Part shown: one piece after another, positions 3,361 to 26,866 of the stretch
Position numbering within the stretch: the first letter of the stretch is position 1
How the letters are laid out: each line of letters begins with the position of its first letter
Position numbers and translations under genes: made by a program
The notes under the pieces: generated by a model
Database searches by the model: none
The model's input: only the letters and a program-made list of their open reading frames with translations
What the model was told of the DNA's origin: nothing
Virus genome (UHGV): UHGV-0115055
Reading direction: 5' to 3' (one strand)
From: a virus
DNA: 32,028 bases

Positions 3361-3632
3361 GTATTCGTATTGAAATTGGCGAACGTTATGTCGTTACCAG
3401 TGACAGCTTTCAGTTTATTCTCCACGAGAAAAAGAGAGCGGAAAGCGGTAAAAACGCCGGTCAGGAATGGCTGGCGGTGGTTGGTTATTACCCGAAATTA
3501 AGCCAGCTCGTTTCCGGCCTGATGCATCACGATATTCTGACCGGAAGCGCAAAATCTTTTGCTGATTTAAACGCGCAGGTTGAGCAACTCAGCAGGCGTT
3601 GTTCAGAGGCTTTTGGCTCACATGGACGTTAA
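3357..3632 (+). CDS. hypothetical early protein (P2 orf83 position)
   Basis: 91 aa ORF immediately upstream of A, overlapping its start. Confidence 0.6.
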   Translation: MSIRIEIGERYVVTSDSFQFILHEKKRAESGKNAGQEWLAVVGYYPKLSQLVSGLMHHDILTGSAKSFADLNAQVEQLSRRCSEAFGSHGR

Positions 3633-5907
3633 AGCCTCCGGGCGTTTTGTCCCTCCGTCAGCATTTGCCGCAGGCACCGGTAAGACGTTTACCGGTGCTT
3701 ATGCATGGAACGCGCCACGCGAGGCCGTCGGGCGCGAAAGACCCCTTACACGTGACGAGATGCGTCAGGTGCAAGGTGTTTTATCCACGATTAACCGCCT
3801 GCCTTACTTTTTGCGTTCGCTGTTTACTTCACGCTATGACTACATCCGGCGCAATAAAAGCCCGGTGCACGGGTTTTATTTCCTCACATCCACTTTTCAG
3901 CGTCGTTTATGGCCGCGCATTGAGCGCGTGAATCAGCGCCATGAAATGAACACCGACGCGTCGTTGCTGTTTCTGGCAGAGCGTGACCACTATGCGCGCC
4001 TGCCTGGAATGAATGACAAGGAGCTGAAAAAGTTTGCCGCCCGTATCTCATCGCAGCTTTTCATGATGTATGAGGAACTCTGCGATGCATGGGGTGATGC
4101 GCATGGTGAAAAAGAATCGCTGTTTACGGATGAGGCGCAGGCTCACCTCTATGGTCATGTTGCTGGCGCTGCACGTGCTTTCAATATTTCCCCGCTCTAC
4201 TGGAAAAAATACCGTAAAGGACAGATGACCACGAGGCAGGCATATTCTGCCATTGCCCGTCTGTTTAACGATGAGTGGTGGATTAGTCAGCTTAAAGGCC
4301 AGCGTATGCGCTGGCATGAGGCGTTACTGATTGCTGTCGGGGAGGTCAATAAAGACCGTTCTCCTTATGCCAGTAAACATGCCATTCGTGATGTGCGTGC
4401 GCGCCGCCAGGCAAATCTGGAATTTCTTAAATCGTGTGACCTTGAAAACAGGGAAACCGGCGAGCGCATCGACCTTATCAGTAAGGTGATGGGCAGTATT
4501 TCTAATCCTGAAATTCGCCGGATGGAGCTGATGAACACCATTGCCGGTATTGAGCGTTACGCCGCCGCAGAGGGTGATGTGGGGATGTTTATCACGCTGA
4601 CCGCGCCGTCAAAGTATCACCCGACACGTCAGGTCGGAAAAGGCGAAAGTAAAACCGTTCAGCTTAATCACGGCTGGAACGATGAGGCATTTAATCCAAA
4701 GGATGCGCAGCGTTATCTCTGCCGTATCTGGAGCCTGATGCGCACGGCATTCAAGGATAATGATTTACAGGTCTACGGTTTGCGAGTCGTCGAGCCACAC
4801 CACGACGGAACGCCGCACTGGCATATGATGCTTTTTTGTCATCCACGCCAGCGTAACCAGATTATCGAAATCATGCGTCGCTATGCGCTCAAAGAGGATG
4901 GCGACGAAAGAGGAGCCGCGCGAAACCGTTTTCAGGCAAAACACCTTAACCGGGGCGGTGCTGCGGGATATATCGCGAAATACATTTCAAAAAACATCGA
5001 CGGCTATGCACTGGATGGTCAGCTCGATAACGACACCGGCAGGCCGCTGAAAGACACTGCAGCGGCTGTTACCGCATGGGCGTCAACGTGGCGCATTCCG
5101 CAATTTAAAACAGTTGGCCTGCCGACAATGGGGGCTTACCGTGAACTACGCAAATTGCCTCGCGGCGTCAGCATTGCTGATGAGTTTGACGAGCGCGTCG
5201 AGGCTGCACGCGCCGCCGCAGACAGTGGTGATTTTGCGTTGTATATCAGCGCGCAGGGTGGGGCAAATGTCCCGCGCGATTGTCAGACTGTCAGGGTCGC
5301 CCGTAGCCCGTCGGATGACGTTAACGAGTATGAGGAAGAAGTCGAGAGAGTGGTCGGCATTTACGCGCCGCATCTCGGCGCGCGTCATATTCATATCACC
5401 AGAACGACGGACTGGCGCATTGTGCCGAAAGTTCCGGTCGTGGAGCCTTTGACTTTAAAAAGCGGCATCGCCGCGCCTCGGAGTCCTGTCAATAACTGTG
5501 GAAAGCTCACCGGTGGTGATACCTCGTTACCGGCTCCCACACCTTCTGAACACGCCGCAGCAGTGCTTAATCTGGTTGATGATGGTGTTATCGAATGGAA
5601 TGACCCGGAGGTCGTGAGGGCGCTCAGGGGGGCATTAAAACACGGCCTGAGAACATCTAATCGTCAGCAAAGAAACGGAAGCCCGTTAAAACCACATGAA
5701 ATAGCACCGTCGGCCAGACTGACCCGGTCGGAACGATTGCAAATTACCCGTATCCGCGTTGACCTCGCTCAGAACGGTATCAGGCCGCAACGATGGGAGC
5801 TTGAGGTGCTGGCGCGTGGCGCGACCGTAAATTATGACGGGAAAAAATTCACGTATCCGGTCGCTGATGAGTGGCCGGGATTCTCAACAGTAATGGCGCG
5901 GATATAA
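3622..5907 (+). CDS. A: rolling-circle replication initiation endonuclease (P2 gpA-like)
   Basis: ~761 aa from ATG at 3622 (track ORF begins at 3580 but overlaps orf83; the MDVKASGRFVPP start fits P2 A). Contains HUH-type motif (HHDGTPHWHMMLF) and catalytic-tyrosine region (GYIAKYISKN) typical of rolling-circle initiators. Confidence 0.93.
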   Translation: MDVKASGRFVPPSAFAAGTGKTFTGAYAWNAPREAVGRERPLTRDEMRQVQGVLSTINRLPYFLRSLFTSRYDYIRRNKSPVHGFYFLTSTFQRRLWPRIERVNQRHEMNTDASLLFLAERDHYARLPGMNDKELKKFAARISSQLFMMYEELCDAWGDAHGEKESLFTDEAQAHLYGHVAGAARAFNISPLYWKKYRKGQMTTRQAYSAIARLFNDEWWISQLKGQRMRWHEALLIAVGEVNKDRSPYASKHAIRDVRARRQANLEFLKSCDLENRETGERIDLISKVMGSISNPEIRRMELMNTIAGIERYAAAEGDVGMFITLTAPSKYHPTRQVGKGESKTVQLNHGWNDEAFNPKDAQRYLCRIWSLMRTAFKDNDLQVYGLRVVEPHHDGTPHWHMMLFCHPRQRNQIIEIMRRYALKEDGDERGAARNRFQAKHLNRGGAAGYIAKYISKNIDGYALDGQLDNDTGRPLKDTAAAVTAWASTWRIPQFKTVGLPTMGAYRELRKLPRGVSIADEFDERVEAARAAADSGDFALYISAQGGANVPRDCQTVRVARSPSDDVNEYEEEVERVVGIYAPHLGARHIHITRTTDWRIVPKVPVVEPLTLKSGIAAPRSPVNNCGKLTGGDTSLPAPTPSEHAAAVLNLVDDGVIEWNDPEVVRALRGALKHGLRTSNRQQRNGSPLKPHEIAPSARLTRSERLQITRIRVDLAQNGIRPQRWELEVLARGATVNYDGKKFTYPVADEWPGFSTVMARI

Positions 5908-6210
5908 TGACAAAGATTCACAAAGTAAAGCTGCACGCAAGATATTTCAACCTTGTGCTGGAGGGAAAAGAAACGCACAGAATTTAGGGGGATAGCCGTT
6001 ATCATGTGTATGAAGCACTTGAAATGTATCTGCATCACTTGGGAGTGTGTCAACGGGGAATTTCCATCTATGTGATTTTTTGAGAGCAATGCAGTGAAGA
6101 TAAAGATACTTATTATAAATCAATGTGATAGATGGTGCCTCGCAAACGTAAATGATAGTTTTGAAGCTTCAGGGCTGATGTCGTTCATAAGACTATGTTT
6201 ACGCTATCAT

Positions 6211-6241
6211 TTATGATAAAAATAATTAATTTTTATCATAA
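6211..6241. promoter_or_regulatory. 31-bp perfect palindrome (13-bp arms TTATGATAAAAAT / ATTTTTATCATAA, 5-bp spacer AATTA) immediately upstream of the island 1 nuclease-like gene; candidate operator
   Basis: Read directly from sequence; lies 17-23 bp upstream of the likely start codons (6258/6264). Confidence 0.5.
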
Positions 6242-6257
6242 AGATTCAACAGAGGAT

Positions 6258-7769
6258 ATGTTGATGAATCAACTAAAATCAATGAATATCAATAAGTTAC
6301 TTTTGGATGTTGATAACCCTCGTTTCCCGACGTCAGCAGAAAATCAGCGTGATGCTATTGCCAAGATGCTTGACATGCAGTACGACCGCATTTATCGCTT
6401 GGCTAAAGATATTGCTTCGAAAGGTTTAGATCCGTCTGAAAACATATTAGTTTATCCTAGTGAAGAGGAATCTGGCTTTTTCGTCGTTGCTGAAGGTAAT
6501 CGTCGAGTTACAGCCCTTAAACTTTTACACTCTCCTAGACTTGCACCAACAGAAAAAGCACGGAAAGCTTTTGAAAAACTTAAGATTACTCAGCTTAAAG
6601 ATATTAATGTTATAGATAACTGCGTTCTTTTTGACGATGATGAATATGAGCATTGGGTCAATTTAAAGCATACTGGTCAAAATGCTGGAGTTGGAAGAGT
6701 TGAATGGACTGCAACAGAAAAAGCACGACATCTGGCTAGGATGGGTAAGCAGTCATTTGGTAATCAAATACTTACATTTATAGAGTTCAATACTGATTTA
6801 TATAAAGAGATAATTGCTAAAAAAAGACTTTTAAAAATCACAAACATCACGCGTCTTTTTGGTGATTTAAAGGTGAGGGATTATTTTAATTTAAAAAGCA
6901 TTAATGGAGTTCTATACTCATATCAGCCTTATGAACGTTTTTGTGCACAATTAAAAAATATTTTAGATGTAATGATTGAAGAGGATGATAAAGGTAAGGC
7001 TTGTTTTACTGTTAATAGGATTCGTAGCCAAGATGACAGGGTTACATTTATTATTGAACAAAAAATAAAACCTTCAGAATCTCTTTTAGATAAGCCGTGG
7101 AGTTTACTGGAGCCTAAATCTTTTCTTACAGAGAAAAAACATGATTCTATTGACAAGAATGATGCATCTGTGAGTGTAAAGAAAGTAGGTCTTTCAGAAG
7201 GTGATGCCTTAAAGAATACAGGTGTGGATAAACAGGAAGATGATTATTCTAGACATGTAGGCACAGAAGAGAGTAAATCTAAAGTTTCGGGCACGGAACA
7301 GAATAAAAACAAGGGAAAAACTCCTCCTAAAGTAGATCGTAATGTGTTGGTGCCATCTTATGTGAAATTTAATTTTAGAGGGCATAAGAAATGCTCTAGA
7401 ATATTTAATGAGCTTAAGTCGCATCTGACATTTGATAACACCCCTAATGCTATCTCAATATTGTTGAGAATATTTATAGATCTCTCTGTAAGCACTTTTG
7501 TTGAAGAAAACAAGTTACAATTTAAGGAACCACATAGAACTCCAGGGCTTCATGATAAGGTTAAAATGTGTGCTAATTTCCTTCGGGAAAATAAAAAGAT
7601 GACGGGGAGTCAATGTACGGCTGTAATAACTTTCTCGAGCCAAATAACTAAACATGATGGTTCATTGCAGCAGTATGTACATAACCCACACTTAATTCCC
7701 TCAAAAGAGGCTGTCAACACTGAGTGGGATAACTTTGAGTTGTTATTAAGCCTTATTTGGAGTGAGTGA
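6258..7769 (+). CDS. ParB/Srx-like N-terminal domain protein (putative nuclease or NTP-dependent DNA-binding effector), cargo gene
   Basis: Track ORF 6195-7769 (524 aa); likely start at ATG 6258 or 6264 (GAGGA at 6252-6256; the palindrome would otherwise be inside the coding region). N-terminus has ParB-box-like motifs: LLLDVDNPRFP (like the ParB ...NP.QPR motif) and VVAEGNRRVTALKLL (like GxRRxxA). A K/E/S-rich low-complexity linker near 7100-7350 precedes an uncharacterised C-terminal domain. AT-rich codon usage unlike the backbone. Confidence 0.7.
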   Translation: MLMNQLKSMNINKLLLDVDNPRFPTSAENQRDAIAKMLDMQYDRIYRLAKDIASKGLDPSENILVYPSEEESGFFVVAEGNRRVTALKLLHSPRLAPTEKARKAFEKLKITQLKDINVIDNCVLFDDDEYEHWVNLKHTGQNAGVGRVEWTATEKARHLARMGKQSFGNQILTFIEFNTDLYKEIIAKKRLLKITNITRLFGDLKVRDYFNLKSINGVLYSYQPYERFCAQLKNILDVMIEEDDKGKACFTVNRIRSQDDRVTFIIEQKIKPSESLLDKPWSLLEPKSFLTEKKHDSIDKNDASVSVKKVGLSEGDALKNTGVDKQEDDYSRHVGTEESKSKVSGTEQNKNKGKTPPKVDRNVLVPSYVKFNFRGHKKCSRIFNELKSHLTFDNTPNAISILLRIFIDLSVSTFVEENKLQFKEPHRTPGLHDKVKMCANFLRENKKMTGSQCTAVITFSSQITKHDGSLQQYVHNPHLIPSKEAVNTEWDNFELLLSLIWSE

Positions 7770-7838
7770 GATTTGTCTACATCTGGACATGGATGTCCAG
7801 AAACTGATAAACTACAAAATCAGGAATGAGAGGGATTT

Positions 7839-8723
7839 ATGAAATTTTATACTCCATTAAGATACCCCGGCGGGAAAGGTAAGTTATCTTACTTTTTAAA
7901 AGATGTTATTGAAAAAAACTCGTTGAATGATGGAGCATATGCAGAACCTTACGCTGGTGGTGCAGGGGTGGCTTTAGAATTATTATTGGAAGAGTATGTC
8001 CGTAAAATCTATATAAATGATGCAGATTTTGCTGTTTATTCTTTTTGGTCATCTGTTGTTAGTGATACTGATGAGCTTTGCCGACTTATTAGCCGAGCAA
8101 AGATAGATATGGATGAATGGTCTTTTCATCGCTATGTTATTTCGAATCCTTCTGAGTTTACTAAGCTTGAGGTTGGCTTTGCTGCGTTTTTCTTAAATAG
8201 AACAAATCGTTCAGGTATTCTCAAGGCGGGGGTTATAGGCGGGAAATCACAAAATGGAAAATGGAAAATGGATGTTCGCTTTAACAGGGCGGATTTAATT
8301 TCAAGAATTGAGAAGATAGCAAATTATAATCAAAGAATAGTAGTAACTAATCTGGATGCTTTGGATTTTCTTGATGCCTTGAATTTTATGGATAATATGG
8401 GAAAGGTGGATAAAAATAAAATTCTTTTGTATTTGGATCCTCCTTACTATATTAAAGGGCAAGGGCTTTACAGGAATTTTTATGAGCATGATGACCATGT
8501 ATTGGTTATGAAGAAACTCACAGAAATTAATTTCCCAAATTGGCTTGTTTCTTATGATAACGCTAAAGAAATTAAAGATATTTATAATGGATTTCCGCAA
8601 GTTGAGTATTCATTGCAATATACAGCGCATCTCAAAAAATCTGGAGAGGAAGTGATGATTTTTTCTCCTGAAATAATTATTCCTAATACCCTGAAAGGGG
8701 TCTCAATGCCAACTTGCGCCTGA
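7839..8723 (+). CDS. D12-class (Dam-like) N6-adenine DNA methyltransferase, cargo gene
   Basis: 294 aa; N-terminal YPGGKGKL (Dam family GGK motif), AdoMet-binding motif I AEPYAGGAGV, catalytic motif IV LDPPYY. RBS GAGAGG upstream. AT-rich. Confidence 0.88.
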   Translation: MKFYTPLRYPGGKGKLSYFLKDVIEKNSLNDGAYAEPYAGGAGVALELLLEEYVRKIYINDADFAVYSFWSSVVSDTDELCRLISRAKIDMDEWSFHRYVISNPSEFTKLEVGFAAFFLNRTNRSGILKAGVIGGKSQNGKWKMDVRFNRADLISRIEKIANYNQRIVVTNLDALDFLDALNFMDNMGKVDKNKILLYLDPPYYIKGQGLYRNFYEHDDHVLVMKKLTEINFPNWLVSYDNAKEIKDIYNGFPQVEYSLQYTAHLKKSGEEVMIFSPEIIIPNTLKGVSMPTCA

Positions 8724-8870
8724 TTTTACTTATTTTTTGTCAGTAAGTAATTAGTTTGGTGCATTTATTTGCATTCATTTTTAAATGCCAGTTCTGGCAT
8801 CTAACATCAGTGCTGGCGCATTCTAACCATTACTGCTGCACTGCATTTAAAGCCCTGCATGAAGCGGGCG

Positions 8871-9058: not shown

Positions 9059-10093
9059 TCAGCCGTTGTCAGTGTCCAGTGAGTAGTTTTTAAAGCGGAT
9101 GACCTCCTGACCGAGCCAGCCGTTTATTTCCCGAATCCTGTCCTGTAACGGGATTAGCTCATTGCGGACAAAGACCTTTGCCACTTTCTCAATATCGCCC
9201 AGTGACCCGACGTTCTCCGGCTTGCCACCCATCAACTGAAAGGGGATGCGGTGTGCGTCCAGCAGGTCAGCGGCGCTGGCTTTTTTGATATTAAAAAAAT
9301 CGTCCTTCGTCGCCACTTCACTGAGCGGGATAATTTTAATGCCGTCGGCTTTCCCCTGCGGGGCATAGAGAAACAGGTTTTTAAAGTTGTTGCGGCCTTT
9401 CGACTTCACCATGTTTTCGCGAAGCATTTCGATATCGTTGCGATCCTGCACGGCATCGGTAACGTACATGATGTATCCGGCATGTGCGCCGTTTTCGTAA
9501 TACTTGCGGCGGAACAGCGTGGCCGACTCATTCAGCCAGGCAGAGTTAAGGGCGCTGAGATATTCCGGCAGGCCGTACAGCTCCTGATTAATATCCGGCT
9601 CCAGCAGGTGAAACACGGAGCCGGGCGTGAAAGGTGTCGGCTCGTTGAAGGACGGCACCCACCAGTAAACATCCTCCTCCACGCCACGACGGGTATATTT
9701 GGCCGGTGAGGTTTCCAGTCTGATGACCTTACCGGTGGTGCTGTAACGCTTTTCCAGAAACGCATTACCGAACACCAGAAAATCCAGCACAAAGCGGCTG
9801 AAATCCTGCTGGGAAAGCCACGGATGCGGGATAAACGTTGAGGCCAGAATATTACGTTTGACGTAAATCGGTGAGCTGTGATGCACGGCAGCACGCAGGC
9901 TTTTTGCCAGACCGGTAAAGCTGACCGGTGGCTCATACCATCTGCCGTTACTGATGCATTCGACGTAATCCAGAATGTCACGGCGGTCGAGTACCGGCAC
10001 CGGCTCGCCAAAGGTGAATGCCTCCATTTTCGGGGCGCTGGCGGTCATTGTTTTTGCCGCTGGTCGCGGTGTTTTCCCTTTTTTCTTGCTCAT
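9059..10093 (-). CDS. Q: portal (capsid vertex) protein
   Basis: 344 aa as in P2 Q; adjacent to cos and divergent from the O-N-M-L capsid operon. Confidence 0.93.
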   Translation of the reverse strand: MSKKKGKTPRPAAKTMTASAPKMEAFTFGEPVPVLDRRDILDYVECISNGRWYEPPVSFTGLAKSLRAAVHHSSPIYVKRNILASTFIPHPWLSQQDFSRFVLDFLVFGNAFLEKRYSTTGKVIRLETSPAKYTRRGVEEDVYWWVPSFNEPTPFTPGSVFHLLEPDINQELYGLPEYLSALNSAWLNESATLFRRKYYENGAHAGYIMYVTDAVQDRNDIEMLRENMVKSKGRNNFKNLFLYAPQGKADGIKIIPLSEVATKDDFFNIKKASAADLLDAHRIPFQLMGGKPENVGSLGDIEKVAKVFVRNELIPLQDRIREINGWLGQEVIRFKNYSLDTDNG

Positions 10094-20725: not shown

Positions 20726-23347
20726 ATGAGCACGAAATTTAAAACCGTTATCACTACTGCCGGAGCCGCAAAGCTGGCAGCCGCCACTGTCCCCGGCGGG
20801 AAAAAAGTAACTCTGTCTGCAATGGCCGTGGGTGACGGTAATGGCAAATTGCCGGTGCCGGATGCTGGTCAGACGAAACTGGTGCATGAGGTCTGGCGTC
20901 ACGCCCTGAATAAAGTCAGCGTGGATAATAAGAATAAAAACTATATCGTGGCTGAACTGGTTGTACCGCCCGAAGTGGGCGGCTTCTGGATGCGTGAGCT
21001 TGGTTTGTATGACGATGCCGGAACACTGATTGCGGTCGCCAACATGGCGGAAAGCTATAAGCCAGAACTGGCTGAAGGCTCCGGACGTGCGCAGACCTGC
21101 CGCATGGTTGTTATTGTCAGCAACGTGTCGTGCGTTGAGCTGAGTATTGATGCCAGCACAGTGATGGCGACGCAGGATTACGTCGATGACAAAATCGCAG
21201 AGCATGAGCAGTCCCGCCGCCATCCTGACGCCACGCTGACAGAAAAAGGTTTTACTCAGTTAAGCAGTGCAACAAACAGCACCAGTGAAAAGCAGGCTGC
21301 AACGCCAAAGGCAGTAAAAGCAGCCTATGACAATGCTGAGAAACGTCTGCAGAAAGACCAGAACGGTGGCGATATTCCAGATAAGGGCGCTTTTCTGGAC
21401 AATATTGGCGTTACCAGCCTGACGTTTATGAAACACAATGGAATGATTCCAACCACTGACAATCTTGACTCCTATGGCCCAGAAGAAAAATATCTTGGAA
21501 CGTGGTCATGTCCGTCACAATCCACTGCAAAACCAGAGTCTGGTTACCCTGAAGATAAAGGCAATGGGGTTCTGGAAGTATTCAATGCTGGTCGCTTTCA
21601 CTGCACACAACGCTACACCACCCGAACCGGTAATATTTACATTCGGATGCTTGATGCAGAATGGAACCCAGCCAGTCCAACATGGAGTGCATGGAGAGTT
21701 ATTACAAGCGGGACTCGACCATTAAGCACGTCAATTGACCTGAATTCTTTAGGTGGTGCGGAACACCTGGGAATATGGCGCAATAGCAGTACATCAATAG
21801 CCTCATTTGACCGTCATTTCCCGGAGGAAGGGAGTTTTGGGCAGGGTATTCTGGAAGTCTTTGAAGGCGGTCTGTATGGGAGGATGCAACGTTACACCAC
21901 CCGTAGTGGGACTATGTACATTCGCGGACTGACTGCCTCATGGGATGCAGAAAATCCACAATGGGAGGACTGGATTGCTGTTGGGTATCAGTCCACGGGA
22001 TGGACTTATTCAGGGGATCTTGATGACCTTTTAAAGCCTGGTATTTATAGCGTTACGAAACAGGCCACAAATGCACCTGTCACCGACTCTAAAGATCTTG
22101 CTGTTGGCTCAATAGTTGAAGTGAAAAAACGTTGTGATATTGAATCGTATATCCAGACATACACGACTGTTTCAGCAACGGATGCCTATAAAAACCGGAC
22201 ATTTCAGCGAACCCGCGCCAGCGGTGAAACTGACTGGGGGGAATGGGCGGAAGTATACAACTCAAAATCATTACTCACTAAATTAGGTGTCGGCGGTGTT
22301 ACCGACAGGTTATCCAGTCTGGACTGGCAGACCTACGACTTTATACCGGGCAGCATGATAACTGTCAGGCTTTCAGATATGACCAATATTCCCGATGGGA
22401 TGGAATGGGGCGTCATTGATACTAACCTGATAAATATCACTGTTGGCCCCAGTGAAGGCGGAGGTGTCGCCCGTTCAATGCATGTATGGCGCAGCACTTC
22501 AAACAAAACCAACTATCGTTTTTTTACAGTCCGCTTATATGGCAATCCTGGGGAGCGTAGCTTCAATATTCGTCGGCTACCAATTATCGACGAAGCCCAG
22601 ACATGGGAGGCAAAACAGACATTCAGTGCAGGCCTTTCTGGTGAACTGTCCGGCAATGCGGCTACAGCAACAAAGCTGAAAACGGCAAGGACAATTAACG
22701 GCGTAAAATTTGACGGCTCGGCAAATATTGAAGCGTTTCCGCCTGGTGTTCCGCTGCCGTGGCCATCAGATACACCACCTGCAGGCTATGCAATCATGCA
22801 GGGGCAGACGTTTGATAAGGCAGCATATCCGAAACTGGCTATAGCCTATCCTTCTGGTGTTATTCCTGATATGCGCGGCTGGACAATCAAGGGCAAACCC
22901 GCCAGTGGGCGTGCTGTATTGTCACAGGAACAGGACGGGATTAAATCGCATACTCACAGTGCCAGTGCGTCAAATACGGATTTGGGAACGAAAACAACCA
23001 GTTCGTTTGATTACGGCACGAAGACGGTCAGTACGTTTAATCATGGCACAAAATCAACGAACAATACGGGCAATCATACGCACACTGTCGGTGGTGTTTA
23101 TGGCGGCGACTCTGTCGGTGGAAAACAGCGTGTACAGGCTTCAGGAAACAATCAGGTGTCCAGCACCGCCGGAGCGCACGCCCATACGGTGGATATTGGT
23201 CAGCATAACCACACTGTAGGTATTGGTGCCCATGCACACACTGTGGCCCTGGGTGCGCACGGACACACCATCACGGTAAATGCTACGGGTAATACCGAAA
23301 ACACCGTCAAAAACATCGCATTTAACTATATTGTGAGGCTTGCATAA
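20726..23347 (+). CDS. H: tail fibre protein H (mosaic: conserved N-terminal anchor, divergent receptor-binding distal part)
   Basis: 873 aa, longer than P2 H (669 aa). N-terminal ~160 aa are P2-H-like; the remainder has an internal duplicated ~50 aa domain and a C-terminal array of H-x-H-T repeats; GC content drops in the distal part. Confidence 0.9.
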
Positions 23348-23925
23348 TGGCTTTCAGAATGAGTGCAGAAGCACAAACTATCCGCGTTTTCAATTTACTT
23401 GATGGAACCAATGAATTTATTGGTGAAAGTGACGCATATATTCCGCCGCATACAGGTCTGCCTGCAAACAGTACAGATATTGCACCGCCTGATATTCCTG
23501 CTGGTTATGCAGCCGTTTTCAATGCAGATGAAATGAAATGGGAACTGATGGAAGACCATCGCGGAAAGACCGTCTATGAAACGAAAACGGGAGCAGCCAT
23601 TTATATTTCTGAACTTGGCGTATTACCTCCAGACGTGACAGCCATTTCCCCGGATGGGGATTATCAGAAATGGAACGGCAATGCGTGGGTGAATGATGAG
23701 AATGCAGAGCGTGATGCGCTTGTCAGAGCGGCTGACTCTCAGAAGAAAGAGCTGATTGCATATGCAGGTGAAATTATTGCCACTCTGCAGGATGCTGTCG
23801 ATTTAGATATGGCTACCGAGGAAGAAAAGTTAAGCCTGACACACTGGAAAAAATACCGTGTGCTACTGAATCGCGTTCAGCCGGAAAATGCCCCGGATAT
23901 TGAATGGCCGAAAATGCCGCAATAA
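23347..23925 (+). CDS. G: tail fibre assembly chaperone G
   Basis: 192 aa directly downstream of H with ATAATG overlap; position of P2 G. Confidence 0.85.
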
Positions 23926-23959
23926 ATCGTATTAGAACTGGTGTGAGATTAGTCATCTA

Positions 23960-24001
23960 TGGCACAGAGTAAAACCTAATCTGACAGTCCACTCTGTGCC
24001 A
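23960..24001. repeat. 11-bp perfect inverted repeat (TGGCACAGAGT ... ACTCTGTGCCA) with 20-nt loop immediately after gene G
   Basis: Read from sequence; possible stem-loop at the end of the H-G transcript or a boundary element of the cargo island. Confidence 0.4.
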
Positions 24002-24492
24002 GCAGCAATTGCGTGGCCAAAGGAAACACTGCCAGCACAATCAGGTATTGATATGTCGATGTAGTCCTGAATGGCTGGCAACTCACCTAACCTAATGAGC
24101 TCCCGTTCAACCGGAACATAAGGTCAATTCTGTTGTATGATTTTTCCCTTTTTGAAAGAATAATAGCGATAAATGACGAATTTTTGGAACCCTGCTTGTT
24201 GCTGAAGATACGTTGTCACAATGGAAGAACGTGACTTACATCGAAGTGATGGGAGTATCCGTCAAGATCTAATACACGAAAATAGAAGTGAAAAGGTACG
24301 CTGCGAGGGCGCTCGCCTGTCCGCTCTGTCTGCGAAGAAATAATTTATTTTAGGCCACCCAAGCGGCTTGTTTAAGATTAGTACTCTTATCTAGAAAACT
24401 CGTAACTGACTTGAATGTATGGTAACATGATAATAACAAGGTTCGAACATCCGCCAATGCAATATACTTAGAACATATAAATTGAATCTGAC

Positions 24493-25374
24493 ATGGATAA
24501 AAATAAATTGGTTAAATTTTCACTAGTCGAAAACGCCTTGGATTCTATTGAGCTAGGTTTGGAGTATTTTTACGAAGCAAAAAAAGAATTCACGCCACGT
24601 AAATATAAACAATGCCTAATTAATATGTTTCATGGCTCGGAGTTAATCCTGAAAGAAATATTGAGTAGGATAAATATTATACTCATATTCGACAAAAACT
24701 CTTTATTTAAAATTTGCAAAGATCCTTTAAGTCCTACTGGGGATGAGTTGTATAAATTAAAATCAATAGATATTAATAGCTTATGCGATGAGGTTGTGAA
24801 GCATTATCCGGACGAGTTTAAAGGAAAGCTTAATATTGTCAAGGGCCTAGCTAGAGAAAGAAACAAGATACAGCATTTTGCAATCGAAATATCACCAGAG
24901 ATATTATCAAGGTTACTCTCAAGTCTTTACATTGATGTTTTTAAGCCATCCTTTAAAATAATTTTATCTGAGCTTGATTATGTTAATCAATACAATTCGC
25001 TGATTGAAAGGCAGATTATAGGTGCTGAAAAGACATTTCTTAAAATACAAGGTGATACTGATAACTATTTAGCTCTTTGTCCAAAGTGCGAGAACCATTC
25101 TCACTTTATATTGTACAAAGGTACGGGTTACCCTGTTGAGACCTATTGTATTTGCTGTGATTATAAAAATACAGATATTGACATATCAGATTATCTGGTA
25201 TGTCCTGAATGCGGATTCCCGTCATTGATATTTGATGAAAAAAATAATGCAGGAGTCTGCCTCAACGAGAAGTGTTACTATGGAATACAAGGTGGATTCG
25301 TAGAAATGGAACCATGTGAAAATTGTGATGGCTTTATTATTGAAGGTTCATGCCCAGAATGTGATACGGATTGA
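24493..25374 (+). CDS. cargo protein: putative HEPN-like domain fused to three C-terminal Cys4 zinc-ribbon units; candidate single-gene anti-phage (abortive infection) effector
   Basis: 293 aa in a strongly AT-rich island at the P2 Z/fun position. R-N-x3-H motif (ARERNKIQHF) typical of HEPN RNases in a predicted helical N-terminal region; C-terminus has paired Cys motifs CPKC..CICC, CPEC..CLNEKC, CENC..CPEC. Possible extended -10 promoter (TGaTAATAA around 24428-24436) upstream. Confidence 0.7.
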   Translation: MDKNKLVKFSLVENALDSIELGLEYFYEAKKEFTPRKYKQCLINMFHGSELILKEILSRINIILIFDKNSLFKICKDPLSPTGDELYKLKSIDINSLCDEVVKHYPDEFKGKLNIVKGLARERNKIQHFAIEISPEILSRLLSSLYIDVFKPSFKIILSELDYVNQYNSLIERQIIGAEKTFLKIQGDTDNYLALCPKCENHSHFILYKGTGYPVETYCICCDYKNTDIDISDYLVCPECGFPSLIFDEKNNAGVCLNEKCYYGIQGGFVEMEPCENCDGFIIEGSCPECDTD

Positions 25375-25552
25375 GATTACTCGACGATTGGTGCAACTGC
25401 ATGCTTGCAAAACTCTATGGTGCTAACGGAGTCAATTACTGAATTGTTGTTACCCATTGACGGATAGATTTCGGTTGCTTAACTGTGAATGGAGTAGCAT
25501 GACAGAGTTTTTTACCAGTCCGATTAGCTTCTATCAAATAGCAGTTCGGACA

Positions 25553-25579
25553 GGCGGGCTGATTGCCCGCCTTTTCTTT
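25553..25579 (+). terminator. rho-independent terminator at the right end of cargo island 2
   Basis: GC stem GGCGGGC / GCCCGCC with loop TGATT followed by TTTTCTTT; located between the cargo gene and the FI late operon. Confidence 0.6.
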
Positions 25580-25675
25580 ATCTGTTGTTTCATCCCCTGA
25601 CCAGCCAGGTCAAATAGCGTCTCATGCTCTGCACAACAGAAAATAGTTGCACCCATTAACCACGGAGTTAAACGG

Positions 25676-26866
25676 ATGAGTGACTATCATCACGGCGTGC
25701 AGGTGCTGGAGATTAACGACGGCACCCGCGTCATTTCCACCGTATCAACCGCCATTGTCGGCATGGTCTGCACAGCCAGCGATGCGGATGCGGAAACCTT
25801 CCCCCTCAATAAACCGGTGCTGATTACCAATGTGCAGAGCGCAATTGCAAAGGCTGGTAAAAAAGGCACGCTGGCGGCATCGTTGCAGGCCATCGCCGAC
25901 CAGTCAAAACCGGTCACCGTTGTCGTGCGTGTGGAAGACGGCACCGGCGACGACGAGGAAACGAAACTCGCGCAGACCGTTTCCAATATCATCGGCACCA
26001 CCGACGAAAACGGTCAGTACACCGGACTGAAAGCCCTGCTGGCGGCGGAGTCGGTAACCGGTGTTAAACCGCGTATTCTCGGTGTGCCGGGGCTGGATAC
26101 CAAAGAGGTGGCTGTTGCACTGGCATCCGTCTGTCAGAAGCTGCGCGCTTTCGGGTATATCAGCGCATGGGGCTGTAAAACCATTTCCGAGGTGAAAGCC
26201 TACCGTCAGAATTTCAGCCAGCGTGAGCTGATGGTCATCTGGCCGGATTTCCTCGCATGGGATACGGTCACCAGTACCACCGCCACCGCGTATGCCACCG
26301 CCCGTGCGCTGGGTCTGCGTGCCAGAATCGACCAAGAGCAGGGCTGGCATAAAACGCTGTCCAACGTCGGGGTAAACGGTGTTACCGGCATCAGTGCGTC
26401 CGTATTCTGGGATTTGCAGGAGTCCAGCACCGATGCTGACCTGCTGAACGAGTCAGGTGTCACAACGCTGATTCGCCGTGACGGTTTCCGCTTCTGGGGT
26501 AACCGTACCTGCTCTGATGACCCGCTGTTCCTCTTTGAAAACTACACCCGCACCGCGCAGGTGCTGGCCGACACGATGGCTGAGGCGCACATGTGGGCGG
26601 TGGACAAGCCCATCACCGCAACGCTGATTCGCGACATCGTTGACGGCATCAATGCCAAATTCCGAGAGCTGAAAACAAACGGCTATATCGTGGATGCGAC
26701 CTGCTGGTTCAGTGAAGAATCCAACGATGCGGAAACCCTCAAGGCCGGAAAACTGTATATCGACTACGACTATACCCCGGTGCCTCCTCTTGAAAACCTG
26801 ACCCTGCGCCAGCGTATTACTGATAAATACCTGGCAAATCTGGTCACCTCGGTTAACAGCAATTAA
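25676..26866 (+). CDS. FI: contractile tail sheath protein
   Basis: 396 aa, P2 FI size and position. Confidence 0.93.
   Translation: MSDYHHGVQVLEINDGTRVISTVSTAIVGMVCTASDADAETFPLNKPVLITNVQSAIAKAGKKGTLAASLQAIADQSKPVTVVVRVEDGTGDDEETKLAQTVSNIIGTTDENGQYTGLKALLAAESVTGVKPRILGVPGLDTKEVAVALASVCQKLRAFGYISAWGCKTISEVKAYRQNFSQRELMVIWPDFLAWDTVTSTTATAYATARALGLRARIDQEQGWHKTLSNVGVNGVTGISASVFWDLQESSTDADLLNESGVTTLIRRDGFRFWGNRTCSDDPLFLFENYTRTAQVLADTMAEAHMWAVDKPITATLIRDIVDGINAKFRELKTNGYIVDATCWFSEESNDAETLKAGKLYIDYDYTPVPPLENLTLRQRITDKYLANLVTSVNSN

Follow-up and report, generated by a model that had tools for sequence, protein, structure and literature searches.

The gene at positions 6264 to 7769 of the UHGV virus genome UHGV-0115055, a stretch of 32,028 nucleotides (nt) that is referred to here in its entirety as the window, is almost certainly PD-λ-5A, the ParB-HEPN part of a two-gene anti-phage system that is carried, together with its methylase PD-λ-5B, as cargo of the hotspot between genes A and Q of a P2-like Escherichia coli prophage. 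The window itself is, by Pfam and RefSeq annotation, a P2-like E. coli prophage. The explanation favoured as a whole, which joins this identity to a sensing of DNA similar to that of restriction-modification (RM) systems and to a HEPN ribonuclease (RNase) as effector, is held with guarded confidence, somewhat better than even. The two genes are the following.

6264..7769, plus strand: PD-λ-5A gene, 501 amino acids (aa) plus stop codon, with a ParB/Srx N-domain, a middle domain, a disordered linker and a HEPN-fold C-terminal domain
7839..8723, plus strand: PD-λ-5B gene, a D12-class (Dam-family) N6-adenine DNA methyltransferase with a DPPY motif and the S-adenosylmethionine (SAM)-binding motif EPYAGGAG

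Identity of the two-gene system

The assignment is carried by profile matches to both genes. The A protein matches the PADLOC profile PD-Lambda-5_A (PDLC03998) with E 8.1e-168, over residues 3-502 in the numbering of a 503-aa version and positions 1-465 of the 466 in the profile, and PHROG 9592 with E 4e-210; the methylase matches PD-Lambda-5_B (PDLC04018) with E 1.4e-121 and is identical at 292 of 294 positions to RCQ13838.1, the PD-λ-5B of E. coli ECOR7. The genes are adjacent, in the order A then B and both on the plus strand, which is the gene order of PD-λ-5.

PD-λ-5 came out of a functional selection and in its source strain, E. coli ECOR7, consists of RCQ13837.1 and RCQ13838.1 (PMC9519451); it was labelled ‘ParB/HEPN, methyltransferase’ by its discoverers (Vassallo et al. 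2022, PMC9519451, Tables S1-S3). Their HHpred analysis placed ParBc at residues 6-89 (96.4%), DUF4145 at 388-418 and HEPN_RiboL-PSP at 469-498 of PD-λ-5A (PMC9519451), coordinates that land on the same features in the window protein. The ECOR7 system affected the plating or plaque size of nine out of ten phages, with the T-even phages affected most strongly; its cloning succeeded only in a Δmrr host, and the screen from which it came discarded clones with the high-frequency escape phenotype typical of RM (PMC9519451). By analogy with this near-identical system, the copy in the window would be expected to protect against phages as well.

The finding is the rediscovery of a known, experimentally tested system and is not to be counted as new. 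A preliminary description of this DNA had proposed that the fusion may be a new effector type; that proposal falls, as PD-λ-5 had already been tested and labelled ParB/HEPN in 2022, and both ParB-HEPN fusions and operons of HEPN, ParB and methylase genes were catalogued in 2013 (Anantharaman et al., PMC3710099). A literature search on the mechanism of PD-λ-5, or on defence by a combination of ParB, HEPN and methylase, returned catalogue mentions and no mechanistic study, and Rousset et al. 2022 make no mention of PD-λ-5. What is added here is incremental: the structural confirmation of both folds, the family-wide loss of an arginine from the HEPN motif, an invariant glycine-rich loop, the size of the family, and the linkage to a methylase in 77 of 77 loci.

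The ORF and its start

The open reading frame (ORF) is real, its longest form spanning 6195-7769. The preliminary description had given it as 6258-7769; the frame stands, and the start is probably 6 nt too early. The RefSeq coding sequence runs from 6264 to 7769 (501 aa, WP_001072651.1, ‘ParB N-terminal domain-containing protein’), and the PD-Lambda-5_A profile begins at residue 3 of the 503-aa version, which is the methionine of the 6264 start. A candidate ribosome-binding sequence, read from the DNA, lies just upstream.

6251..6256, plus strand: Shine-Dalgarno-like AGAGGA, with 7 nt between it and the ATG at 6264

The same AGAGGA is separated by only 1 nt from the ATG at 6258. Because the RefSeq limits, the start of the profile and this spacing all favour it, 6264 is taken as the probable translation start.

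Architecture of the A protein

The protein was compared with 66 relatives that are 28-78% identical to it, and the conservation of single residues was counted over 115 sequences taken from 50%-identity clusters. The AlphaFold2 model has a mean predicted local distance difference test (pLDDT) score of 82. Together, alignment and model divide the protein into four parts rather than the three first described, as a conserved middle domain had been overlooked.

6264..6599, plus strand: ParB/Srx-fold N-terminal domain, residues 1-112, with NPR (18-20) and EGNRR (77-81)
6600..7115, plus strand: conserved middle domain, residues 113-284, delimited by conservation, secondary structure and the span of the Foldseek alignments
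7116..7331, plus strand: disordered linker rich in K, S, D and E, residues 285-356, recognised by pLDDT, composition and lack of conservation
7332..7766, plus strand: HEPN-fold C-terminal domain, residues 357-501, with the variant motif L468-Q469-Q-Y471-V-H473-N474 and with R359, E383, R402 and D406 conserved

The N-terminal domain has the ParB/Srx fold. A ParB/Srx fold had been proposed from the letters alone, with structure comparison as the check, and the check bears the proposal out: a Foldseek search with the model returned KorB (8qa8) and the ParB of Caulobacter (7bm8) with probabilities of 0.99-1.0, with sulfiredoxins ranking lower. The phosphate-binding motif GxRRxxA, also pointed out there, is found as G78-N79-R80-R81-V-T-A84, in which G78, N79, R80 and R81 are invariant in the 115 sequences. 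The other proposed signature, NP..R, has to be corrected to NPR (N18-P19-R20), which is 99% conserved. Searches at the level of HMMER do not find this relationship. Pfam ParBc (PF02195) gave no match at E <= 1 in the window protein or in any of the 66 relatives; the A protein had no match in Pfam and a single weak one in NCBIfam (RepB, E 0.014), and searches of the PDB by phmmer and with a family profile returned noise (eL24, CENP-C). For this reason the assignment rests on structure, motifs and the published HHpred result. By analogy with ParB proteins, the pocket may bind a nucleotide.

That KorB and chromosomal ParB are the best structural matches, and that NCBIfam gives a weak hit to RepB, could be taken to mean that the A protein simply serves partition or regulation in the prophage, as a ParB homologue that binds a centromere or represses transcription and has no role in defence. 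We regard this reading as extremely improbable, and as effectively refuted. The island has neither a ParA gene nor an array of parS-like repeats; where ParB has its C-terminal dimerisation domain, the A protein has HEPN; the methylase is an obligate partner, as set out below; the near-identical ECOR7 system protects against phages; and the lack of any ParBc match among the 66 members also counts against it. P2-type prophages, moreover, integrate and are not known to need partition.

The middle domain opens with a glycine-rich loop, W131-x4-H136-T-G-x-N-x-G142-x-G-x-V-x-W148 (6654-6707, residues 131-148), which only GNRR surpasses in conservation across the family: H136, G142 and W148 are found in 100% of the 115 sequences and W131 in 98%. 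The loop is modelled with low confidence (pLDDT 61-71) and has no recognisable counterpart in Box III of ParB. Further on lies a helix-helix-β-hairpin element around T193 and R197, of which R197 is 100% conserved. The Foldseek alignments to KorB and ParB span 200-287 columns, reaching past the N-domain into the middle region, and the corresponding region of KorB and ParB is the DNA-binding domain. This correspondence suggests that the middle domain of PD-λ-5A may bind DNA.

The linker that follows had been noticed in the preliminary description as a low-complexity segment at about 7100-7350 (residues 280-363), and is confirmed as a real, disordered segment of variable length. Residues 285-356 consist of 19% K, 12.5% S, 10% D and 8% E, with pLDDT below 50 over most of 292-351; the sequence is not conserved, and its length in relatives ranges from 9 to 124 residues with a median of 24, compared with 73 in the window protein.

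The last part of the protein, some 130 residues by the first reckoning, had been left as resembling nothing assignable. Structure prediction followed by a fold search assigns these C-terminal ~145 residues to the HEPN fold, a four-helix up-and-down bundle, and the domain modelled alone reaches a pLDDT of 94 and a predicted template modelling (pTM) score of 0.89. Across the family the motif segment reads [L/F/M]468-[N/H/Q]469-x-[Y/F]471-[V/I]-H473-[N/S/D]474. Among the 115 sequences H473 is conserved in 95%, the polar residue at -4 from it in 96% (as N, H or Q), R359, E383 and R402 in 96% each, and E/D406 in 98%. A Pfam scan of the 66 full-length members and 26 C-terminal segments gave sub-threshold hints alone (DUF5677 in 7 of 66; DUF4145 and the HEPN of Csm6 in one each), which are not relied on here.

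The methylase partner and the spread of the family

The neighbouring gene belongs to the Pfam family MethyltransfD12 (PF02086; E 3.6e-16), and its score against the Dam subfamily in NCBIfam is weak, at 47 bits compared with a cut-off of 115. The need for a Δmrr host in cloning implies that the methylase is active and that its mark is attacked by Mrr. Mrr is not known to attack ordinary Dam methylation at GATC. The mark set by PD-λ-5B is thus probably not ordinary Dam GATC methylation, and the weak Dam-subfamily score agrees with this.

With residues 1-285 as query against 1.84 billion cluster representatives, 2915 relatives were found at E <= 1e-3 and 1532 at E <= 1e-10. The HEPN-like C-terminal domain is kept by 112 of the 114 listed representatives with a length of 400 aa or more, which indicates that the fusion is an ancestral and stable architecture and no one-off. 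When one genome per GTDB species was scanned, relatives turned up in 256 stretches, from Proteobacteria, Bacteroidota, Firmicutes, Gemmatimonadota, Leptospira, Dehalococcoidia, Patescibacteria and Micrarchaeota. Neighbourhoods were counted in the best 80 of these 256 stretches, three of which were uninformative as the contig ends within 270 nt. In all 77 informative loci a D12 methylase directly adjoins the A gene, 76 times downstream on the same strand and once downstream in convergent orientation, and the loci so linked span Proteobacteria, Bacteroidota, Firmicutes, Gemmatimonadota, Patescibacteria and Micrarchaeota. Six further contigs that were inspected individually hold the same pair. 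A and B are an obligate two-gene mobile module. The preliminary description had not connected the A gene with the methylase that adjoins it, its obligate partner.

The presence of a methylase in every informative locus argues strongly for methylation-based recognition of self. A Type IV (modification-dependent) enzyme was rejected, as the obligate co-encoded methylase would make the DNA of the host itself a target. As to a classical Type II RM system, Pfam, NCBIfam and the fold search showed no PD-(D/E)XK, HNH, GIY-YIG or phospholipase D (PLD) fold in A, and the island holds no third gene beside A and the methylase.

Another arrangement would be a guard of the PrrC type, in which the HEPN RNase is kept silent by the methylase, or by the ParB module of A on methylated DNA, and is released only once a phage disturbs methylation or restriction, be it by an anti-restriction protein or by depletion of SAM; unmethylated DNA would not by itself set it off. 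This is the general model of Anantharaman et al. for HEPN domains associated with RM (PMC3710099), PD-λ-5 has been called a ‘dual RM/Abi’ system (PMC10799925), and the strict adjacency of A and B would fit a dependence like that of toxin and antitoxin. The model nevertheless fits less well, because the island offers no separate restriction enzyme that a phage could inhibit or that the HEPN domain could guard, and because the phage range is broad: an effect on nine out of ten unrelated phages is hard to square with a release that depends on one particular anti-restriction function. The HEPN fusions on record are, in addition, with nucleases or helicases and not with methylases (PMC3710099). On balance we think a guard of this kind improbable.

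Several of the individual loci deserve mention. In a Vibrio prophage (L009, 4260-7405) the pair directly follows, in the same orientation, a CI-like repressor composed of a helix-turn-helix and an S24 peptidase domain, an arrangement that fits expression in the lysogen. In Methylomonas (L006, 7565-13300) the pair adjoins a Tn7-like TnsA/TnsB/TniB/TniQ module; the PD-λ-5 cassette travels on several kinds of mobile element. A distant metagenomic homologue, 30% identical (L004, 8255-11927; L005, 3919-7591), is followed beyond the pair by a 662-aa protein without Pfam match and then by a weak match to DpnII/MboI, a GATC restriction enzyme, so that some members of the family may lie inside larger RM-like clusters. 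ParB-HEPN homologues were also encountered in Micrarchaeota (L062, L084) and in Patescibacteria/Saccharibacteria (L042, L071). For a system first defined in an E. coli prophage, a host range that takes in ultra-small archaea and bacteria of the candidate phyla radiation (CPR) is unexpectedly wide.

A proposed mechanism

The mechanism that we prefer is one in which B marks self, A senses unmethylated DNA and the HEPN RNase stops the infection; taken as a whole, we consider it evenly poised between right and wrong. PD-λ-5B would methylate adenines in the DNA of its own cell at a motif other than GATC. The nucleotide-binding ParB/Srx domain of PD-λ-5A and its middle domain would engage DNA and tell methylated self from unmethylated incoming DNA. 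Engagement of unmethylated phage DNA would switch on the C-terminal HEPN domain, probably by the pairing of two such domains, and HEPN would then cleave RNA through a variant active site (H473, N/H/Q469, R402 and E/D406), which would abort the infection. The long flexible linker would leave the effector domain mobile relative to the DNA-bound sensor. The result would be an RM-like system on one polypeptide, whose ‘restriction’ arm includes, or is, an RNase, a proposal that spells out the ‘compacted RM+Abi’ (RM plus abortive infection) idea of the discoverers (PMC9519451).

A number of points weigh against this proposal. The literature search gave no biochemical or genetic dissection of PD-λ-5, and every mechanistic step is accordingly inferred. 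The middle domain matched no DNA-binding family in Pfam, the 66 relatives included. The arginine of the canonical Rx4-6H motif is absent: among 75 relatives, none carries R at -4 to -6 from the histidine. Assuming that the conserved N/H at -4 is the polar residue that follows the arginine in canonical motifs, the arginine would be expected at -5, and this position, 468, is hydrophobic (L, F or M). The HEPN domain may therefore be non-catalytic, as it is in Roquin and sacsin, and the ParB domain itself could be the nuclease.

The main rival reading makes DNA the target. The ParB/Srx domain would be a DNA nickase or nuclease regulated by nucleoside triphosphate (NTP), as in some ParB-superfamily conflict proteins, the arginine-less HEPN domain a non-catalytic module for dimerisation or regulation, and the whole an unusual RM system whose restriction enzyme is of the ParB type. 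We give this alternative real but clearly minor weight, as an effector that acts at the level of RNA, or is otherwise non-classical, is favoured by three observations. The T-even phages are those hit hardest by the ECOR7 system, though their glucosylated hydroxymethylcytosine (glucosyl-hmC) DNA resists most DNA-cleaving restriction enzymes. The selection that yielded PD-λ-5 had removed clones with RM-type escape. Lastly, five polar HEPN residues are 95-98% conserved over cluster representatives at no more than 50% identity, which is unusual for a pure scaffold and argues for an active site. HEPN families that keep the histidine and lack the arginine are on record (c2405; PMC3710099), and in the RNases RnlA and LsoA an Arg/Glu pair upstream of Rx4-6H (R255, E258) is essential alongside R318 and H323 (PMC8266594). 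By analogy, these precedents are suggestive of a variant HEPN active site in PD-λ-5A and make it plausible.

Within the proposal that A senses unmethylated DNA and acts through its HEPN domain, one can speculate about how the sensing is achieved. PD-λ-5A may be a ParB-type nucleotide-gated clamp that loads on, or slides along, DNA, reads its adenine methylation and licenses the arginine-less HEPN RNase on unmethylated DNA, with the invariant HTGxNxGxG...W loop as part of the switch. This more specific version is offered tentatively and is, as it stands, rather unlikely. If it were true, the system would amount to ‘restriction by RNase’ on a single polypeptide, in which the NTP switch of ParB, and not a nuclease, does the discrimination of self and non-self. 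More generally, if HEPN is the effector, PD-λ-5 would show the sensing of DNA modification wired to RNA cleavage in one protein.

The prophage setting

The two genes form a low-GC island between homologues of P2 genes A and Q, in the position of P2 defence hotspot #1.

3580..5907, plus strand: P2 gene A replication endonuclease, left flank (Pfam Phage_GPA E 6e-124; RefSeq)
5990..8850, limits approximate: low-GC cargo island, P2 defence hotspot #1 (by composition; hotspot as described in PMC9519451 and PMC9122126)
7782..7801: perfect 9-base-pair inverted repeat TCTGGACAT-GG-ATGTCCAGA, inside the 69 nt that separate the PD-λ-5A gene from the PD-λ-5B gene
9059..10093, minus strand: P2 gene Q portal protein, right flank (Pfam Phage_portal E 5e-14; RefSeq)

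The GC content of the island is 0.35-0.39, compared with 0.53-0.55 in the flanking genes, and its content is the two co-oriented genes. Both the placement and the atypical composition are those of the hotspot that has been described between P2 gene A and gene Q (PMC9519451, PMC9122126). The same slot of P2-like prophages houses four systems of Vassallo et al. as well as the classical tin and old genes (PMC9519451). An island at least 99% identical occurs in 22 of 5426 complete E. coli genomes.

Directly 3' of gene A, at 5907-5988, RefSeq annotates a frameshifted and truncated DUF3850 pseudogene, which looks like the leftover of an earlier cargo gene after exchange of cassettes at the hotspot. 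The inverted repeat could be an operator or a small hairpin that controls expression of the methylase. As a conserved regulatory site the palindrome was rejected, since it is absent from distant homologous loci, and it is kept here as a local feature.

The window holds a second low-GC island (GC 0.36) at 23950-25650, between genes at 23347-23925 and 25676-26866, the first of which comes after a large tail-fibre-like ORF (20726-23347). By synteny with P2 we take these genes to be those for tail-fibre assembly and the tail sheath, and the island would, if the synteny holds, be the second P2 hotspot of Vassallo et al. (the fun/Z site). Its ORF at 24493-25374 (plus strand, 293 aa) matches the PADLOC candidate PDC-S64 (E 2.6e-22) and PHROG 20819, and the product has an R-N-K-I-Q-H (Rx4H, HEPN-like) motif and a cysteine-rich, zinc-ribbon-like C-terminus.

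Comparison with known systems

Compared with PD-λ-5 of ECOR7, the cassette has the same two genes in the same order and the same P2 hotspot; there is no difference of substance, and the window holds another copy. Comparable beyond it are the Saro_3948 fusion and the MAE_28990 operons of Anantharaman et al. (PMC3710099), which combine the same ParB-superfamily, HEPN and DNA methylase components in an RM-like setting. By their published descriptions, the HEPN family of Saro_3948 is ‘mostly active’ and that of MAE_28990 keeps the motif, whereas PD-λ-5A lacks the arginine. PD-T4-2, another anti-phage system of E. coli, shares the pairing of ParB superfamily and HEPN (Vassallo et al., Table S3, PMC9519451), but its DUF262 ParB-like and HEPN_RiboL-PSP domains are on separate proteins, and there is no methylase among its components as tabled.

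With chromosomal and plasmid ParB, the KorB cytidine triphosphatase (CTPase) clamps and PadC, the A protein shares the N-domain fold and GxRR as its phosphate-binding motif. It differs from them in being without a ParA partner, parS or a C-terminal dimerisation domain, and, compared with ParB, the ENLQR-type motif of Box III is not recognised, with the family-specific HTGxNxGxG loop in its place. SspE and GmrSD/BrxU, which combine a DUF262 ParB-like NTPase with a DUF1524 HNH domain, have the same layout of sensor and effector, but with a DNA-cutting HNH instead of HEPN; GmrSD, moreover, attacks modified DNA according to Type IV logic and does so without a cognate methylase, unlike PD-λ-5. Finally, PrrC and RloC resemble PD-λ-5 in that, together with a Type I RM system (EcoprrI), an RNase of the HEPN superfamily is coupled to RM as an abortive back-up (PMC3710099). 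PrrC, however, is an ABC-ATPase-HEPN protein of its own, standing guard over a complete Type I enzyme, whereas in PD-λ-5 the HEPN domain is fused to ParB and there is no separate restriction enzyme.

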